Shown: one piece after another, positions 2,143-59,564 of the stretch
Layout: each line of letters opens with the position of its first letter
How positions within the stretch are numbered: position 1 is the stretch's first letter
Origin: Escherichia virus KFS-EC3
Direction: 5' to 3' (one strand)
Sequence record: MZ065353.1
Length of the DNA: 64,000 nt
Program-made: the position numbers and the translations under genes
The notes under the pieces: model-generated
Seen by the model: only the letters and a program-made list of their open reading frames with translations
Told to the model about the DNA's origin: nothing
Database searches by the model: none

Positions 2143-2523
2143 ATGAAAATCGCTATTTTGGTTATTGCGTTGGGTCTTACTGGTTGTGTAGCTCAAGGAC
2201 CGGTAGTAAATCAATCTGATGTAGGAAAAATTGTAAACTGTTCAAGCAAATTTTATAATCCTAACGTCAAGTGTTATAAAGAAGCTCCAAAACAGACAGT
2301 AGAACAAATGCAGGCGAATTTTGACGAAGCTATTCGTCCAGACGAATCTGCTCAAGCATATCGTAATTCAGATGTAATTACACGTGAAGAAAAAATTGAA
2401 AACTACTGCGCCGAACTTTGGGCTAATTGGGCTAATAATTACCAATGGCGTACTGGTAAAAATGCTCCGATGGAGTATGTAGTGAATTCTTATAATTCAT
2501 GCGTAAAAAATTTGACTAAGTGA
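2143..2523 (+). CDS. predicted lipoprotein (126 aa), imm.1-like position
   Basis: SD GAGGAAATT; N-terminal signal peptide with lipobox LTGC. Confidence 0.6.
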   Translation: MKIAILVIALGLTGCVAQGPVVNQSDVGKIVNCSSKFYNPNVKCYKEAPKQTVEQMQANFDEAIRPDESAQAYRNSDVITREEKIENYCAELWANWANNYQWRTGKNAPMEYVVNSYNSCVKNLTK

Positions 2524-2530
2524 GGAAAAC

Positions 2531-2782
2531 ATGGAAACTTTAGTAGCAGGTTCAATTTTTATGGTTTTAGTTTCAGGCGTGTTGGCTATTATTATATACA
2601 TGCTTCCATGGTTCATCGCCTTGATGCGTGGGTCAAAATCGACAGTAGGAATCTTTTTCACGTCTTTACTGTTTAATTGGTCAATTATTGGTTGGTTTAT
2701 TACATTTATTTGGTCAATTGCGGGTGAAACTAAAAAATCCGCACAACCAAATCAAGTAATTATCATCAGAGAGAAGGAATGA
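2531..2782 (+). CDS. imm: superinfection immunity membrane protein Imm
   Basis: 83 aa, two hydrophobic helices, same length and position as T4 Imm. Confidence 0.85.
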   Translation: METLVAGSIFMVLVSGVLAIIIYMLPWFIALMRGSKSTVGIFFTSLLFNWSIIGWFITFIWSIAGETKKSAQPNQVIIIREKE

Positions 2783-2928
2783 AAAGCAAAATTTTAGCAG
2801 TATTGCTTTTAATCTTGATGATTATAATAAGTATATACTATAGCGTAACGGTTCCTTGTATGATTCCGACACTTATTATAGGTTGGGGTTTATTACTGTT
2901 ACAAGTTAAATATGAATGTATCAATTGA
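2779..2928 (+). CDS. small hydrophobic protein (49 aa)
   Basis: ATG overlaps imm stop (ATGA); single TM-like segment; below ORF-track size cutoff. Confidence 0.3.
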   Translation: MKSKILAVLLLILMIIISIYYSVTVPCMIPTLIIGWGLLLLQVKYECIN

Positions 2929-2935
2929 GGTTTAA

Positions 2936-3676
2936 ATGATTAGTGACTCTATGACAGTTGAAGAAATCCGTCTTCATTTGGGGCTTGCATTAAAGGAAAA
3001 AGATTTCGTAGTTGATAAAACTGGTGTTAAAACTATTGAAATTATTGGTGCATCATTTGTAGCAGATGAACCTTTTATTTTTGGCGCTCTTAATGATGAA
3101 TACATTCAACGTGAACTTGAATGGTATAAGTCTCAAAGTCTGTTTGTTAAAGATATTCCAGGTGAAACACCGAAGATTTGGCAGCAGGTAGCATCTTCTA
3201 AAGGCGAAATTAACTCGAATTATGGTTGGGCCATCTGGTCAGAAGATAACTATGCCCAGTATGATATGTGTTTAGCTGAACTTGGTCAAAATCCTGATTC
3301 TCGACGCGGTATCATGATTTATACTCGTCCATCCATGCAATTTGACTACAATAAAGATGGTATGTCAGATTTCATGTGTACGAATACAGTACAGTACCTG
3401 ATTCGTGATAAGAAAGTCAATGCGGTTGTTAGCATGAGAAGCAATGATTGCTGGGCAGGCTATCGTAATGATTATGCTTGGCAAAAATACGTACTAGATA
3501 AATTAGTATCTGATTTGAATGCAGGCGACCCATCGCGGCAATATAAAGCAGGTTCTATTATATGGAACGTTGGAAGTCTTCATGTGTACGAAAATCAGTT
3601 TTATTTAGTTGACCATTGGTGGAACACCGGTGAGACTCATATTGCTAAAAAGGATTATACTGGAAAATGGAAGTAA
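2936..3676 (+). CDS. 42: dCMP hydroxymethylase
   Basis: 246 aa, near-identical to T4 gp42 as recalled (MISDSMTVEEIRLHLG...). Confidence 0.95.
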   Translation: MISDSMTVEEIRLHLGLALKEKDFVVDKTGVKTIEIIGASFVADEPFIFGALNDEYIQRELEWYKSQSLFVKDIPGETPKIWQQVASSKGEINSNYGWAIWSEDNYAQYDMCLAELGQNPDSRRGIMIYTRPSMQFDYNKDGMSDFMCTNTVQYLIRDKKVNAVVSMRSNDCWAGYRNDYAWQKYVLDKLVSDLNAGDPSRQYKAGSIIWNVGSLHVYENQFYLVDHWWNTGETHIAKKDYTGKWK

Positions 3677-4308
3677 ATGTGCCACATGTTTATAAGTATA
3701 AACATCCTAAAACTAAAAAGTGGTATATAGGAAGTCATGATGGTCACAACCCGAATTATGATGGTTCGGGTGTAGTTTGGCAACATGCTAAAAAGAAATA
3801 TGGAATAAAATCCTTTAATAAAGAAATATTATATGAAGGACCAATGTTTAGACAGGTTGAAGAAATTATTTTAACTTGTTTAGATGCTGCTAATTGTCCG
3901 GATTCATATAATTTAAAGAATGAAGCATGGGGAGGAAGTTTTCCAGGCAAATTAAATGGAATGTACGGTAAAAAACTATCTCCAGAAGAAAGATATAAGT
4001 GCGGAAATGCCTTTCGTGGAATCAAGCGTCCTGATCATTCTAAAAGAATGAAAGGCGAAGGTAATCCAATGTATGGTAAAAATGAGCAGGCATATGGAAT
4101 TATAAATCGAGCCAAGGAAAATTCTGGTAAAACTTATGAAGAAATTTTTGGCGTAGAAAAAGCTAAAATAATTAAAGAAACGATGTCTAAAAATCGTAAA
4201 GGAAAACCTCATAATTTGATAGAAAAAATATGTCCGCATTGCGGACTAAAAGGACGTGGGCCAAATATGACAAGATACCATTTTGACAAATGTAAGGCAC
4301 TTAAATGA
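3667..4308 (+). CDS. GIY-YIG homing endonuclease-like protein (Seg-type) with NUMOD3-like repeats
   Basis: VYKYKHPKTKKWYIGSH...YDGSG motif; repeated G-K/R-x-S/N modules; C-terminal CPHC...C; overlaps 42 stop and downstream start. Confidence 0.75.
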   Translation: MEVNVPHVYKYKHPKTKKWYIGSHDGHNPNYDGSGVVWQHAKKKYGIKSFNKEILYEGPMFRQVEEIILTCLDAANCPDSYNLKNEAWGGSFPGKLNGMYGKKLSPEERYKCGNAFRGIKRPDHSKRMKGEGNPMYGKNEQAYGIINRAKENSGKTYEEIFGVEKAKIIKETMSKNRKGKPHNLIEKICPHCGLKGRGPNMTRYHFDKCKALK

Positions 4309-8238: not shown

Positions 8239-8421
8239 ATGGAATTGGTAAAGGTAGTTTTTATGGGGTGGTTTAAGAATGAAAGCATGTTTACTAAAGA
8301 AATCACAATGATGAAAGATGACGTTCAATGGGCTACTACTCAATATGCTGAAGTTAATAAAGCGCTAGTTAAAGCTTTCATTGATGACAAGAAAGTATGC
8401 GAAGTGGATTGCCGAGGATAA
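8239..8421 (+). CDS. dmd: Dmd, antitoxin against RnlA/LsoA
   Basis: 60 aa, matches T4 Dmd (gene 61.5) as recalled; adjacent to 41. Confidence 0.85.
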   Translation: MELVKVVFMGWFKNESMFTKEITMMKDDVQWATTQYAEVNKALVKAFIDDKKVCEVDCRG

Positions 8422-8422
8422 T

Positions 8423-8680
8423 ATGCATATTGTTTTATTTAAACCTACTCCGTATAACGTCAGGAAAAATACTCAATTCAAAGCACTTATCGCAGATACG
8501 TGGGAATTGGTATTAGATATTCCAGCAGAAGAAAGCCCTCCATTTGGTCGAGTGGAATTTATTAAGTTTGCTGTGCGCCCTACAAAGCGGCAGATTCGCC
8601 AATGCAAAAGATACTTTCGTAAAATCGTCAAGTTAGAGAAACAGTTTGTAACATGTGATTATACAGAAGTTTTAAAATAG
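8423..8680 (+). CDS. hypothetical protein, T4 61.4-like (85 aa)
   Basis: ATG after SD GAGGATAAT, 2 nt past dmd stop; position matches T4 61.4. Confidence 0.55.
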   Translation: MHIVLFKPTPYNVRKNTQFKALIADTWELVLDIPAEESPPFGRVEFIKFAVRPTKRQIRQCKRYFRKIVKLEKQFVTCDYTEVLK

Positions 8681-8682
8681 TA

Positions 8683-8712
8683 GTTTACAAGCTGATAGAG
8701 TTGTGTTATAGT
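8683..8712 (+). promoter_or_regulatory. early promoter
   Basis: TAG-TTTACA-N17-TATAGT; inverted repeat GCTGATAGAG/TCTATCAGC around -10. Confidence 0.5.
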
Positions 8713-8743
8713 AATTCTATCAGCTAATCGCGGAGAAAAGAAA

Positions 8744-8998
8744 ATGATGCTAGTTAATAGAGAATATCAGTTTAAATCAGAAGAAGATTTGGAAAAATTC
8801 GCGAGTGGTTGTGAACTGAATAGACGCACAGCTAAAGTCATAGGATTAAAACCCTTTACAGTTCTAGATTGTGAAGTTTCTAAATTCCGCAGAGGGTGTT
8901 CTATTAGCGGTCATGCTCTTGTTGATGGGAACACATTTTTCTTTGTTTTTAGCGTCAGAGAACTTTTATTGATTAACGAACTTGAGGAAATAAAATAG
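8744..8998 (+). CDS. hypothetical protein (84 aa)
   Basis: ORF with SD GGAGAAAAG and its own early promoter. Confidence 0.5.
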   Translation: MMLVNREYQFKSEEDLEKFASGCELNRRTAKVIGLKPFTVLDCEVSKFRRGCSISGHALVDGNTFFFVFSVRELLLINELEEIK

Positions 8999-9062
8999 TT
9001 TACTTTTGTTTTAAACATGTTATTATAGACCTATCAAAACAAACGAGTAAATGGAGAACAAA

Positions 9063-9245
9063 ATGTCTAAAGTATCAGGTTATCAATTATTAACACAAGA
9101 ACAACGCTCAGAGATGGATTCTTTACAAGAACGGTGTCAGCATAGAAATAACGCACTTGATTCATTTTTATTAGTTGAATATGAAAACTTGTGCTCTAGA
9201 CTTGAAAAAGAATATGTTCATCAACATGAAGGAGGAGAAGAATGA
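9063..9245 (+). CDS. hypothetical protein (60 aa)
   Basis: ATG after SD GGAG (alternative ATG at 9051); preceded by early promoter near 8998-9027. Confidence 0.45.
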   Translation: MSKVSGYQLLTQEQRSEMDSLQERCQHRNNALDSFLLVEYENLCSRLEKEYVHQHEGGEE

Positions 9246-9348
9246 AACTGAAATCACCAATTATTGCAATTTGTCTGTTTGCTTCTACTAGTGTTTACTT
9301 TTGTTGAAAATTGAGATACTATAAACATAAACTACTGAGGAGATTATC

Positions 9349-10436: not shown

Positions 10437-11465
10437 ATGTCATCAATACCTTGGATTGATAATGAGTTTGCATATCGTGCATTAGCTCATTTACCTAAAT
10501 TCACACAAGTAAATAATAGTTCAACTTTTAAATTGCGGTTTAGATGCCCTGTTTGTGGAGATTCAAAAACCGACCAAAATAAAGCCCGTGGATGGTATTA
10601 TGGCGATAATAATGAAGGAAATATTCATTGTTATAACTGCAACTATCATGCACCAATCGGAATATATTTAAAGGAGTTTGAACCCGATTTATATCGTGAG
10701 TATATCTTTGAAATAAGAAAAGAAAAAGGTAAAAGTCGTCCAGTAGAAAAACCTAAAGAACTTCCTAAACAACCTGAGAAGAAAATAATTAAATCTCTTC
10801 CGTCATGCATTAGATTAGATAAATTGGCGGAAGACCATCCAATTATAAAATATGTAAAAGCTCGCTGTATTCCAAAGGATAAATGGAAATATCTTTGGTT
10901 TACAACCGAATGGCCTAAATTAGTTAATAGCATAGCACCAGGAACATACAAAAAGGAAATACCTGAGCCTCGTCTTGTTATTCCAATTTATAATGCTAAT
11001 GGAAAAGCTGAGTCTTTTCAAGGACGTGCATTAAAGAAAGATGCTCCTCAAAAATATATCACCATCAAAGCTTATCCTGAAGCAACAAAAATCTATGGCG
11101 TTGAACGAGTTAAAGATGGTGATGTATATGTTCTAGAAGGACCTATAGATTCACTTTTTATTGAAAATGGTATAGCTATTACAGGTGGTCAATTAGACCT
11201 AGAAATTGTTCCATTTAAAGATAGACGTGTGTGGGTTTTAGATAATGAACCTCGTCATCCTGACACTATTAAACGAATGACTAAATTAGTTGATGCAGGA
11301 GAAAGGGTTATGTTTTGGGACAAATCTCCCTGGAAATCAAAAGATGTTAATGATATGATTAGAAAGGAAGGTGCAACCCCTGAACAAATTATGGAATATA
11401 TGAAAAATAATATTGCCCAGGGGTTGATGGCTAAAATGCGGCTATCTAAATATGCTAAGATTTAA
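10437..11465 (+). CDS. 61: DNA primase gp61
   Basis: 342 aa; Zn-ribbon CPVCGDS...CYNC; matches T4 gp61 length. Confidence 0.95.
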   Translation: MSSIPWIDNEFAYRALAHLPKFTQVNNSSTFKLRFRCPVCGDSKTDQNKARGWYYGDNNEGNIHCYNCNYHAPIGIYLKEFEPDLYREYIFEIRKEKGKSRPVEKPKELPKQPEKKIIKSLPSCIRLDKLAEDHPIIKYVKARCIPKDKWKYLWFTTEWPKLVNSIAPGTYKKEIPEPRLVIPIYNANGKAESFQGRALKKDAPQKYITIKAYPEATKIYGVERVKDGDVYVLEGPIDSLFIENGIAITGGQLDLEIVPFKDRRVWVLDNEPRHPDTIKRMTKLVDAGERVMFWDKSPWKSKDVNDMIRKEGATPEQIMEYMKNNIAQGLMAKMRLSKYAKI

Positions 11466-11662
11466 ATTAACCCAACTAAAGCAAATGCTAAATCTACGAA
11501 TGTATCAAGAGTAATTACTGGAATATTAACACCATGAGCAATAGCAATTGGTGATAAAACAAAATTCCAAAGTAAAATTCCTACCATAGCAGAAATAGTA
11601 AAAGCTATACGTTTTTTATTACCTTTTATGGCATTAACAAGTGCCATTAATTTTTGTACCAT
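11462..11662 (-). CDS. small hydrophobic protein (66 aa), opposite strand
   Basis: SD GGAGG 4 nt before ATG; two TM-like segments; lies between 61 and 56. Confidence 0.4.
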   Translation of the reverse strand: MVQKLMALVNAIKGNKKRIAFTISAMVGILLWNFVLSPIAIAHGVNIPVITLDTFVDLAFALVGLI

Positions 11663-11673
11663 ATGTCCTCCTT

Positions 11674-11699
11674 ATTGCTTTATATATTTATTGTATAAT
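11674..11699 (+). promoter_or_regulatory. middle-mode promoter (MotA box) for gene 56
   Basis: ATTGCTTTA MotA-box-like motif, 11 nt spacer, TATAAT. Confidence 0.45.
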
Positions 11700-11733
11700 T
11701 AATCTACTAACCCATGAATTGAAAGGAAAAATA

Positions 11734-12252
11734 ATGGCTTACTTTAATGAATGTTCGCAACTGATCGAAGGCGCTGATAAAGCTCAAAATGAATACTGGG
11801 ATATTCTCGGTGACGAAAAAGACCCACTGCAAGTTATGCTTGATATGCAGAAATCTTTGCAGGTTCGTTTAGCTAAAGATAAACCTGAATATAACCGTCA
11901 TCCTGATGATTTGGCTACTGCAGGCGAAGTTGTCGATTGGCTGCGTAATCAGAAAGATTACATTGATGATGAATTCCGTGAACTTCTGACTTCTCTTGGT
12001 GGTATGAGCAATGGTGAAAAAGATGCATCTGCTGTATGGAAGCCTTGGAAGTCGCAGCATGGTGAACGTCGTGAAACTCTAATTACTGATTTGTCACCAC
12101 AAGACCAATTGGAAATTAAATTCGAAATGATTGATATTCTTCATTTCGTTCTGAACATGTTCCAAGGTCTCGGTCTTACGGCTGAAGAAATCTTTAAACT
12201 TTATTATCTGAAAAATGCTGAAAACTTCGCTCGTCAAGACCGAGGTTATTAA
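11734..12252 (+). CDS. 56: dCTPase/dUTPase gp56
   Basis: 171 aa from ATG after SD GGAAAAATA; matches T4 gp56 as recalled. Confidence 0.9.
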   Translation: MAYFNECSQLIEGADKAQNEYWDILGDEKDPLQVMLDMQKSLQVRLAKDKPEYNRHPDDLATAGEVVDWLRNQKDYIDDEFRELLTSLGGMSNGEKDASAVWKPWKSQHGERRETLITDLSPQDQLEIKFEMIDILHFVLNMFQGLGLTAEEIFKLYYLKNAENFARQDRGY

Positions 12253-12452
12253 TGGCTCGTTTAAATAAACGCCAGCTTAAGAAAGCCCACAAGAAACGTA
12301 TTGACCAGCTATTTAAAAATTATGACAAGGAGCTCGTATGTGAGCTCTTATCTAATCAGCTCCACAAAGCTTACACAATTAAAACTGGACATATACAATT
12401 AGGTAAGGTGCATGAAGAAGCCTTAAAATTAATTATAGAGCATTCAAAATGA
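12252..12452 (+). CDS. hypothetical basic protein (66 aa)
   Basis: ORF with overlapping stop/start (TAATG) after gene 56. Confidence 0.45.
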   Translation: MARLNKRQLKKAHKKRIDQLFKNYDKELVCELLSNQLHKAYTIKTGHIQLGKVHEEALKLIIEHSK

Positions 12453-12658
12453 AATTTGATTTTTATGCATGGCAAAAAGCCGGGAGACCGGCTAGTCGAG
12501 CATTTGGTTCTGATGGATATAATATTAGAGCTCATTGGAAGTTTAATGCTCCAGACGATTATTCTCCGGTAGTTATTAACGGTGATGTTGTTATATTAAC
12601 TAAAATTGGATATTTTAGCGTTCCACGAGAATTTATTATAAATAATCATGTAATTTAA
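12449..12658 (+). CDS. hypothetical protein (69 aa)
   Basis: ORF overlapping previous stop (ATGA). Confidence 0.45.
   Translation: MKFDFYAWQKAGRPASRAFGSDGYNIRAHWKFNAPDDYSPVVINGDVVILTKIGYFSVPREFIINNHVI
12637..12644 (+). promoter_or_regulatory. late promoter (TATAAATA) for soc
   Basis: Exact T4 late-promoter -10 octamer about 30 nt upstream of soc. Confidence 0.5.
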
Positions 12659-12674
12659 ATAAAAGGAGAATTAC

Positions 12675-12920
12675 ATGGCTAGTACTCGCGGTTATGTTAA
12701 TATCAAAACGTTTGAGCAGAAATTAGATGGAAATAAGAAAATTGAAGGAAAGGAAATTTCTGTAGCTTTCCCTCTTTATTCTGACGTTCACAAAATTTCT
12801 GGCTCTCATTACCAGACATTCCCTTCAGAAAAAGCAGCATATTCTACAGTATATGAAGAAAATCAACGTACTGAATGGATTACTGCAAACGAAGATTTGT
12901 GGAAAGTAACTGGTGAATAA
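12675..12920 (+). CDS. soc: small outer capsid protein Soc
   Basis: 81 aa, near-identical to T4 Soc as recalled; SD AAGGAGAATT. Confidence 0.9.
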   Translation: MASTRGYVNIKTFEQKLDGNKKIEGKEISVAFPLYSDVHKISGSHYQTFPSEKAAYSTVYEENQRTEWITANEDLWKVTGE

Positions 12921-12926
12921 TTTCAA

Positions 12927-12950
12927 GGACTCCTCCGGGAGTCCTTTTTT
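12927..12950 (+). terminator. Rho-independent terminator after soc
   Basis: Hairpin GGACTCC-TCCG-GGAGTCC followed by TTTTTT. Confidence 0.7.
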
Positions 12951-12960
12951 CATTTTACCG

Positions 12961-12990
12961 GTTTACTTTCTAAAATGAGTATGGTATAAT
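12961..12990 (+). promoter_or_regulatory. early promoter
   Basis: TTTACT-N17-TATAAT. Confidence 0.5.
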
Positions 12991-13016
12991 AGAATTATCT
13001 TATAGAGGAGAGCACT

Positions 13017-57949: not shown

Positions 57950-57954
57950 GGAGT

Positions 57955-57975
57955 GGGCCGCAAGGCCCATTTTAT
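57955..57975 (+). terminator. terminator-like hairpin after nrdB
   Basis: GGGCC-GCAA-GGCCC hairpin followed by ATTTTATTA. Confidence 0.45.
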
Positions 57976-57976
57976 T

Positions 57977-59564
<1,588 letters not shown>

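Follow-up and report, generated by a model that had tools for sequence, protein, structure and literature searches.

The primase-dCTPase junction of Escherichia virus KFS-EC3 very likely has the standard dam-less, T6-type T-even layout and carries the small opposite-strand gene dam.1

Dam of phage T4 is the product of a dispensable accessory gene. In T4 and T2 this gene is located between genes 61 and 56, a position that was given in an initial annotation of the sequence studied here and that we confirmed in the RefSeq records of both phages (NC_000866 and NC_054931, respectively). Each interval also holds a small open reading frame (ORF) on the opposite strand, hereafter dam.1, which lies between gene 61 and dam and is unannotated in both records; in T4 it falls within a 309-bp gap. 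Between dam.1 and the promoter of gene 56, T4 carries an insert of about 880 bp with a possible early promoter, the tail of a decayed ORF and dam. T2 carries in this slot a full 181-aa ORF, T2_032, together with dam, and T4 keeps only the last codons of T2_032. The T2_032 product gave a sub-threshold Pfam match to a DpnII-type family (E = 0.0096; 15.7 bits, cutoff 23), belongs to PHROG 8706, which has no function, and had no match in NCBIfam, and its reading as a decayed DpnII-like ORF is offered as a lead.

Other described relatives have no dam at this position. The T6 record (GenBank MH550421) gives the order 61, an opposite-strand gene annotated 'Dam.1; dam.1', 56, soc.2, a soc.1-like ORF and soc, and no Dam homologue was found in the first 50 kb of T6, the nrdC locus included. 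The layout of RB69 and ST0 (Mosigvirus) and of VR25 (Gaprivervirus) consists of gene 61, an ORF of the dam.1 family and gene 56, with VR25 carrying two tandem dam.1 paralogues.

The window analyzed in this study is a stretch of 64,000 nucleotides from Escherichia virus KFS-EC3 (MZ065353.1). According to the ORF list, gene 61 occupies positions 10437..11465 (+ strand) and encodes a DNA primase of 342 aa, which is the annotation of this gene in all matching records; its product gave a weak Pfam match to DNAG_N, and its DNA is 96.9% identical to T4 gene 61 by BLAST. Gene 56, encoding a dCTPase/dUTPase of 172 aa that matches Pfam dUTPase_2, occupies 11734..12252 (+ strand), with its start at 11734 and not at 11735. 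The gap between the two genes measures 268 bp, in line with the approximately 270 bp given in the initial annotation, and the gene order is that of T6. The T6 sequence aligns with window positions 10437-13000 without gaps at 92% identity, and the promoter region is essentially identical, although the two phages are different mosaic Tequatroviruses overall and no database record matches the window above about 97%. We consider it highly likely that the locus is the standard dam-less ('T6-type') T-even primase-dCTPase junction, a level of confidence that applies to the identification of the locus and not to the role of dam.1. Both the dam-less layout and the dam.1 gene are ordinary and already known.

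The observation in the initial annotation that no Dam-type methyltransferase is encoded in the 64-kb window was upheld by direct searches, since tblastn with T4 Dam returned nothing better than an E value of about 5 (best, 5.4) and no DPPY motif was present. Strings of the form [DNS]PP[YFW] were found in the window only in a GIY-YIG endonuclease (NPPW; ORF 57953..58387), in a 99-aa ORF (8381..8680), in short frames and antisense to pseT, all of them unrelated or spurious. Additionally, no Dam homologue is encoded in the whole genome of phage SH-1, whose sequence over the interval is the same and which shares 95.6% identity with the window in the portions that align. In KFS-EC3 nothing occupies the slot between dam.1 and the promoter of gene 56, and therefore this phage very probably makes no Dam of its own and its GATC sites would be left unmethylated by a phage enzyme. 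A dam gene in the remaining 100 kb or so of the genome, for instance at the nrdC locus where other genera have theirs, is unlikely.

On the minus strand, positions 11462..11662 hold dam.1, a gene of 66 aa whose stop codon overlaps that of gene 61 within TTAA. The initial annotation had described this ORF as having a strong Shine-Dalgarno sequence and two hydrophobic segments, and both features were recovered, the former as AGGAGG at 11667..11672 (minus strand), 4 nt 5' of the ATG, and the latter as 19-residue Kyte-Doolittle means that peak at 2.0 (about residues 27-36) and 1.9 (about residues 54-57). It belongs to the dam.1/RB69ORF029w family; the match to phrog_2024 (E = 5.4e-31) is full-length, with residues 2-66 aligned to profile positions 1-65 of 65. 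The protein is 100% identical to 'RB32ORF030w' of phages ime09 and vB_SsoM_113, and the family has already been recorded as 'dam.1' in T6, as RB69ORF029w and RB32ORF030w, and as PHROG 2024.

Comparison with the named phages changes how this ORF should be viewed. The initial annotation had presented it as a membrane ORF standing in the place of dam, but T4 and T2 carry it alongside dam (94% and 92% amino-acid identity, respectively), and the idea of a replacement for dam was rejected because the two coexist in these phages. In T6 the first codon of dam.1 is ATT instead of ATG, so that the annotated start is Met6 and the annotated product has 61 aa. The homologues of Mosigvirus and Gaprivervirus (RB69ORF029w/RB32ORF030w; 65 aa) share about 48-54% amino-acid identity with dam.1 as well as the motifs AIKGNKK, LWNF..P.A.AHG and DTFVD, and they agree with the window in position, orientation and upstream signals. 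The opposite-strand, 3'-end-to-3'-end arrangement with gene 61 was seen in T4, T2, T6, RB69, ST0, VR25, ime09 and WL-3, and throughout the 692 phage records of Tequatrovirus, Mosigvirus and Gaprivervirus in which dam.1 was found it is always tail-to-tail with the primase gene. Far from being unusual, as it had first appeared, an antisense membrane gene is a constant element of the locus across these three genera. A scan of IMG/VR with dam.1 returned 5 loci, every one of them a Tequatrovirus.

The opposite-strand frame could in principle be incidental to a non-coding spacer kept for signals of the + strand, such as a gene 61 terminator, upstream promoter elements or an origin structure. There is a + strand feature of this kind within the 5' end of dam.1, where a consensus scan located a weak terminator-like hairpin followed by a T-run (11628..11647, + strand; 8 pairs, 3 of them G-C), and gene 61 transcripts may possibly end there, ahead of the gene 56 promoter. 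The spacer reading is also in keeping with the lack of annotation in the T4 and T2 RefSeq records, with Pfam and NCBIfam scans of the 66-aa protein that returned no family, and with literature searches on RB69ORF029w, RB32ORF030w, 'dam.1' and unannotated small proteins of T4, which gave nothing relevant and no transcript, protein or phenotype data. Against it, the frame is intact in 686 of the 692 records, at amino-acid identities from 100% down to 48%, and substitutions in dam.1 concentrate on codon positions 1 and 3, whereas changes at the second position number 0-1 within Tequatrovirus and make up 10-12 of about 80 in comparisons across genera. Pairwise dN/dS values range from 0.08 to 0.47 and mostly lie between 0.1 and 0.4. 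The Shine-Dalgarno sequence is AGGAGG or AAGGAG in all lineages for which upstream regions were compared (T4, T2, T6, RB69, ST0 and VR25), and both it and the start codon are kept across these regions while the flanks diverge. Furthermore, the tandem paralogue of VR25 has its own start and matches the same PHROG at E = 3e-27. An incidental frame is very improbable given this evidence, and the pattern of substitution indicates that dam.1 is a gene under purifying selection.

Both strands of the interval carry promoter-like signals upstream of their genes. Middle promoters that depend on MotA are recognized by a box, (a/t)(a/t)TGCTT(t/c)A, with its centre at about -30, followed after 11-13 bp by a -10 element of the form TAnnnT, and pattern matching located such an arrangement ahead of gene 56 at 11673..11699 (+ strand), consisting of the MotA box TATTGCTTTA, a spacer of 11 nt and the -10 element TATAAT. 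Its core, TGCTTTA followed after 11 nt by TATAAT (11676-11699), corresponds to the middle promoter of the initial annotation; the window contains 11 occurrences of this pattern where 3.1 would be expected. A MotA-type element also precedes gene 56 in T4, T2, T6, RB69 and VR25, and the distance to the start codon and the downstream leader are the same as in T4 and T2. The T4 record X01416 annotates a 'mot-box of promoter P(M) 16.53' before gene 56, the T4 RefSeq record NC_000866 places oriA at the P(M)16.53 transcript, and Nolan et al. predicted an RB69 middle promoter, Pm:16038, at the corresponding place (PMC1524935). By position, the promoter described here corresponds to P(M)16.53 of T4, the promoter of the oriA primer, and its dependence on MotA is predicted.

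Upstream of dam.1, 22 nt 5' of its ATG, lies a candidate late promoter of the gp55 type, AATAAATA (11685..11692, minus strand), which matches the T4 late promoter sequence TATAAATA, located at -13 to -6, in 7 of 8 positions; the late promoters of T4 relatives commonly have either A or T at position -13 (PMC1524935). The candidate falls within the spacer of the gene 56 middle promoter, on the opposite strand. Its core, ATAAATA, occurs only 15 times in the 128 kb formed by the two strands of the window, and it is kept 16-22 nt 5' of the dam.1 ATG in Tequatroviruses with and without dam, in Mosigvirus and in Gaprivervirus, with diverged flanks. T4 and T2 share with the window the Shine-Dalgarno sequence, ATAAATA and, immediately 5' of gene 56, a middle promoter with a MotA box. 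In Mosigvirus and Gaprivervirus, ATAAATA is located upstream of the MotA box or overlaps it, in contrast to its position within the promoter spacer in the window. Nolan et al. predicted 31 late promoters in RB69, none of them before RB69ORF029w (PMC1524935), and the minus strand of the KFS-EC3 interval yielded no sigma-70-like promoter. The conserved ATAAATA element suggests that dam.1 may be expressed late.

With these signals the interval would form a compact control region with divergent transcription, in which gene 56, on the + strand, would be driven from a MotA-dependent middle promoter equivalent to the oriA promoter of T4. On the minus strand, the conserved small gene dam.1, ending tail-to-tail with gene 61, would probably be transcribed late from an (A/T)ATAAATA promoter of the gp55 type that is interleaved with the gene 56 promoter. 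By contrast, dam is an accessory cassette and not a conserved part of the locus, situated between dam.1 and the gene 56 promoter in about one third of sequenced Tequatroviruses.

The distribution of dam across phage records bears directly on this point. T4-type dam DNA was present in 184 records versus about 323-354 with the dam-less layout, the latter counted as records that cover at least 80% of a query spanning the interval and hence have no dam there. Similarly, at most about 227 Escherichia and Shigella phage records contain any Dam homologue, versus 589 with dam.1. By these counts most sequenced Tequatroviruses have the dam-less layout, and it is shared by the classical phages T6 and RB69, which gives no support to the idea, suggested by the initial annotation, that a loss of dam sets this phage apart. 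What lies between dam.1 and the promoter of gene 56 differs from phage to phage: the slot is empty, or occupied by dam, by a DpnII-like remnant together with dam, or by a homing endonuclease, the last of these in WL-3. Dam homologues of Slopekvirus and Krischvirus are found at another locus, adjoining nrdC and gene 49.

It is conceivable that the dam-less state arose secondarily, through recombination between short flanking repeats in an ancestor with a T4/T2-type cassette, in which case dam would truly have been lost, as the initial annotation supposed. Up to 11673, the exact boundary of the cassette, the DNA flanking the slot in the window shares 97% identity with T4, short similar strings that could have mediated a deletion (TTTAAATTAAT and TTTAATTAAT) lie around the T4 cassette, and similar AT-rich strings flank it on the left (CCTCCTTTAAATTAAT) and on the right (TTTTTAATTAATTGCTT). 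T4 has a 536-bp deletion relative to T2 within the cassette, so deletions do occur there. However, the junction in the window, CCTCC-TTA-TTGCTTTA, is not the one expected from a simple repeat-mediated deletion of the T4 sequence, and the position of ATAAATA relative to the MotA box differs from that in T4. In addition, all of the outgroups examined (RB69, ST0 and VR25) have an empty slot and the same layout, and the fact that further genera carry Dam at a different locus agrees with its being a mobile accessory gene. We regard a secondary deletion as rather unlikely.

The product of dam.1 has the features of a small membrane protein. Its N-terminus is basic, with 5 Lys/Arg in residues 1-18, a transmembrane helix extends over about residues 19-41, and the C-terminal segment that follows is hydrophobic or amphipathic and contains two conserved Asp; for RB69ORF029w, a transmembrane helix was predicted at residues 21-41 by Nolan et al. 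2006 (PMC1524935). The AlphaFold model (mean pLDDT of 73) contains helices at residues 2-13, 16-42 and 52-63. As modeled, the second hydrophobic segment, a short helix (52-63) containing the two Asp, may not span the membrane. Taken together, dam.1 would be an inner-membrane protein with one clear transmembrane helix, an N-terminus that probably faces the cytoplasm and, at its C-terminal end, a short segment that is both acidic and hydrophobic.

Searches for remote relatives returned almost exclusively the family itself. Searched with a profile HMM, 1.84 billion representative proteins gave 7 matches, six of them within the dam.1 family and the seventh, a weak one, to a protein of 1,255 aa, and no remote homologue with a function was detected among them. 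A word-indexed search of 5.8 billion proteins gave 33 matches, all to close relatives of dam.1, one of which carries the unsupported name 'Holin'. A Foldseek search of the model against viral structures recovered the family and two weak matches to uncharacterised 63-aa proteins, one of them from a Karamvirus, but nothing characterised; the fold search was kept to viral structures because a helical hairpin of 66 residues at this pLDDT could be expected to yield uninformative matches in PDB and AFDB.

The 'Holin' label, given in UniRef and BFVD to the homologue of phage OE5505, raises the question of whether dam.1 is a holin-like or pinholin-like lysis protein, and its small size (63-66 aa), one or two hydrophobic helices and probable late expression would be compatible with such a function. 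The label appears to be automated, and no evidence supporting it was found. Amongst the Foldseek results, the 'Holin' matches were the dam.1 homologue itself and one at E = 7.4, with no significant match to a characterised holin. The protein also lacks the charged hydrophilic C-terminus typical of holins, as its C-terminus is hydrophobic (...AFALVGLI) and its charges are N-terminal, and the second segment is modeled as a helix of 12 residues instead of the second transmembrane segment that characterizes class II holins and pinholins. Moreover, no endolysin or lysis cassette lies beside dam.1, and all of the genomes inspected have it flanked by the primase and dCTPase genes. Lysis in T4 is already served by a defined holin, T, and by antiholins. 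A lysis protein of the holin type seems improbable on these grounds.

Our best guess, made with low confidence, is that the membrane protein encoded by dam.1 could act late, at the inner membrane or the cell envelope, for example in lysis timing or in the exclusion of superinfecting phages. The small T4 membrane proteins Imm, RI and Ac, phage-encoded accessory proteins with roles in the envelope, resemble dam.1 in being membrane proteins of about its size; neither sequence nor fold relates them to dam.1 in the searches made here, and the likeness serves as a functional lead only. A more elaborate proposal would make dam.1 a functional late small inner-membrane protein overlooked in T4, with an envelope role in lysis timing or superinfection exclusion, in which the late onset of minus-strand transcription helps to shut off the MotA transcript that primes oriA; we hold this combined proposal to be a long shot.

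These results have consequences for the annotation and use of T-even phages. In the RefSeq records of T4 and T2 a small gene under purifying selection in three genera, dam.1, is missing and should be added to the annotation. The slot between dam.1 and the gene 56 promoter emerges as a recurrent insertion site for accessory or selfish genes such as dam, the DpnII-like remnant and the homing endonuclease. Furthermore, host defences that depend on methylation or are sensitive to it could act differently on a Tequatrovirus according to its Dam status, which could therefore be recorded as a cheap marker when phages are chosen for host-range or therapy work.

Gene 56 of KFS-EC3 is itself a diverged allele, with 76% identity to T4 and about 80% to T2 over the stretch aligned by BLAST. 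It is followed on its 3' side by soc.2 and soc.1, a T2/T6-like order according to the ime09 and T6 annotation, and not by segF, which occupies this position in T4.

The window sequence is a segment of a Tequatrovirus (T4-like) genome in which the primase gene 61 (10437..11465, + strand) and the dCTPase gene 56 (11734..12252, + strand) are separated by 268 bp containing no + strand ORF. The 66-aa ORF dam.1 occupies the minus strand at 11462..11662; its stop codon overlaps that of gene 61 in the shared string TTAA, and its Shine-Dalgarno sequence, AGGAGG, is located 4 nt upstream of the ATG. A MotA-type middle promoter for gene 56 was found on the + strand at 11676-11699 (TGCTTTA, 11 nt, TATAAT), a pattern that is 3-4x over-represented in the window (11 matches against 3.1 expected). 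Additionally, a terminator-like hairpin with a T-run lies on the + strand at 11628-11647, inside the 5' coding end of dam.1, where gene 61 transcripts could stop ahead of the gene 56 promoter. The short interval, the middle promoter and the opposite-strand ORF with its Shine-Dalgarno sequence and two hydrophobic stretches had been described in the initial annotation and were confirmed, as was the position of dam between genes 61 and 56 in T4 (NC_000866; order 61, dam, 56, segF, soc) and likewise in T2.

The proposal that the membrane ORF is found instead of dam was incorrect, as both coexist in T4 and T2. By tblastn, the 309 bp left unannotated between 61 and dam in T4 encode the 66-aa ORF on the opposite strand with 94% identity, and T2 carries it with 92% identity. 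The window matches T4 at 97% identity as far as 11673, just beyond the dam.1 ribosome-binding site. The alignment picks up again at 11694, entering an allele of gene 56 that has diverged (76% identical); approximately 880 bp of T4, comprising dam and its upstream region, are missing from the window. The diverged gene 56 stretch (11734-12658; 76% identical to T4, ~80% to T2) has soc.2 and soc.1 ORFs downstream of it in place of segF. This is a T2/T6-type context, the target of SegF-mediated marker exclusion by T4. Window positions 8689-9291, flanked by a 61.4-like ORF and sp, also did not align to T4; they hold two small + strand ORFs (8744..8998, 84 aa; 9051..9245, 64 aa), and at the matching position phage ime09 carries a pair of hypothetical ORFs.

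An antisense gene at this locus had also been regarded as unusual, which was not borne out: the junction is of the T6 type, the arrangement that the majority of T-even phages have between genes 61 and 56, and the conserved opposite-strand ORF is already on record (dam.1, RB69ORF029w, PHROG 2024). In T6 (MH550421), which aligns to the window without gaps from 10437 to 13000, gene 61 is followed by an opposite-strand ORF annotated 'Dam.1; dam.1', gene 56, soc.2, a soc.1-like ORF and soc, with no dam. Dam is likewise absent at this site in RB69 (RB69ORF029w), ST0 and the Gaprivervirus VR25 (KP007361), the last of which has two tandem paralogues of the ORF at 2995-3401 (VR25_031 and VR25_032), both matching PHROG 2024. 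A 321-nt query running from the 3' end of gene 61 to the beginning of gene 56 was covered to at least 80% in 323 phage records, and a 1.8-kb query spanning 61 to 56 in 354; T4-type dam DNA was found in 184. The ORF itself was detected by tblastn in 692 phage records, ~500 at 90% identity or higher (Tequatrovirus) and 190 at ~50% (Mosigvirus and Gaprivervirus), and it overlaps the 3' end of the primase gene in every one of the matches listed.

No plausible ORF in the window contains a DPPY or NPPY motif, in agreement with the initial annotation, and tblastn of the 64 kb revealed no T4 Dam homologue (best E = 5.4). Two similar strings were rejected as methyltransferase motifs, NPPW being within a GIY-YIG endonuclease and SPPY being antisense to pseT. 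No Dam homologue was found in the whole genome (168.7 kb) of the related phage SH-1, which is 100% identical across the 61-56 interval, or in the first 50 kb of T6, including the nrdC region. Phage records with any Dam homologue (E at most 1e-10) numbered only 208 for Escherichia and 19 for Shigella, against 512 and 77 with the dam.1 ORF. Thus, most phages of this locus type have no Dam at all, and these relatives argue indirectly against a Dam elsewhere in the KFS-EC3 genome.

What is inserted between dam.1 and the gene 56 promoter varies among phages, making this slot a polymorphic insertion site. In place of dam, WL-3 (MT968995) carries a gene for a 216-aa homing endonuclease (1597-2247), and RPN226 an HNH endonuclease. 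T2 (NC_054931) has an additional 181-aa ORF, T2_032 (2365-2910), between the small ORF and dam, with a weak, sub-threshold Pfam match to DpnII restriction endonuclease (E = 0.0096) and a D...EIK motif; a deletion of 536 bp in T4, compared with T2, has removed all but the final T2_032 codons (NTYDEELYNSFLLQ*). This DpnII-like match and motif, together with the remnant in T4, suggest that a GATC restriction-modification module has decayed to give the T-even dam cassette. In Slopekvirus (Miro, 3115-3840) and Krischvirus (Makalu_002, 2492-3304), a T4-Dam homologue of 46-55% identity is located immediately upstream of nrdC and gene 49; the Dam locus therefore differs between T4-like genera, and dam is a movable accessory cassette. 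A secondary deletion of dam could also have produced the empty slot, an origin that we consider possible but unlikely; because the slot is empty in all outgroups compared (RB69, ST0 and VR25), an ancestral empty slot, with dam gained in part of Tequatrovirus, is favoured.

Comparative evidence indicates that dam.1 is a real gene. Its frame is intact from 100% to 48% amino-acid identity, and the family is duplicated in tandem in VR25. Differences within Tequatrovirus are confined to first and third codon positions apart from 0-1 second-position changes, and almost every amino-acid replacement is conservative (mainly Ile/Val); pairwise dN/dS is 0.08-0.47. Both the start codon and the strong Shine-Dalgarno sequence have been retained, except for the T6 start: in T6 dam.1 (3232-3432) the first codon is ATT instead of ATG, with the Shine-Dalgarno sequence intact. 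The T6 annotation begins at Met6, giving 61 aa, and T6 dam.1 may be translated weakly from ATT or start at the internal Met. The protein matches PHROG 2024 (unknown function; E = 5e-31) but no Pfam or NCBIfam family, and a profile search of 1.84 billion proteins returned only 7, six of them from its own family. The T4 and T2 reference annotations omit this conserved small gene, which is of modest residual interest.

The gene shares its strand with the T4 late genes, and at this locus that strand yielded no sigma-70-like promoter. ATAAATA is found just 15 times across both window strands (128 kb in all). In the window itself and in T6, T4, T2, RB69, ST0 and VR25 it is kept 16-22 nt ahead of the ATG, with differing surrounding bases. 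The upstream motif agrees with the late promoter TATAAATA at 7 of 8 positions; position -13 is often A or T in T4 relatives (PMC1524935). Judging from this motif, dam.1 is probably expressed late, although Nolan et al. (PMC1524935) did not predict a late promoter ahead of RB69ORF029w and no transcript or protein evidence for dam.1 was found in the literature searched. By position, the gene 56 promoter corresponds to T4 P(M)16.53, which T4 records tie to oriA priming, and it was also predicted in RB69 as Pm:16038 (Nolan et al., PMC1524935). As ATAAATA (11685-11691) lies within its spacer in the window, the two divergent promoters, the late one putative, are interleaved, and this overlap with the oriA middle promoter contributes to the modest residual interest of the locus.

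The AlphaFold model of dam.1 (mean pLDDT 73) has helices at 2-13, 16-42 and 52-63. The N-terminal 18 residues include five Lys/Arg and no acidic residues, a clear transmembrane helix spans 19-41, and the C-terminal part (HGxNxP....DTFVD.AFAL.GLI) is hydrophobic with two conserved Asp. A single transmembrane helix at 21-41 was predicted for RB69ORF029w by Nolan et al. (PMC1524935 supplement). The product would accordingly be an N-in membrane protein that either crosses once, leaving a short periplasmic tail, or folds as a helical hairpin, and we tentatively place its role late, at the inner membrane or cell envelope. One homologue is labelled 'Holin'; this label is unsupported, as the charges are N-terminal and not in a hydrophilic C-terminal tail, no lysis gene is nearby, and Foldseek matched no characterised holin significantly. 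The model does resemble an uncharacterised 63-aa protein of Enterobacter phage vB_EclM_CIP9 (Karamvirus; BFVD A0A6B9Y0M4; Foldseek probability 0.99, E = 0.11, 28% identity), which may be a distant member extending the family to another genus.
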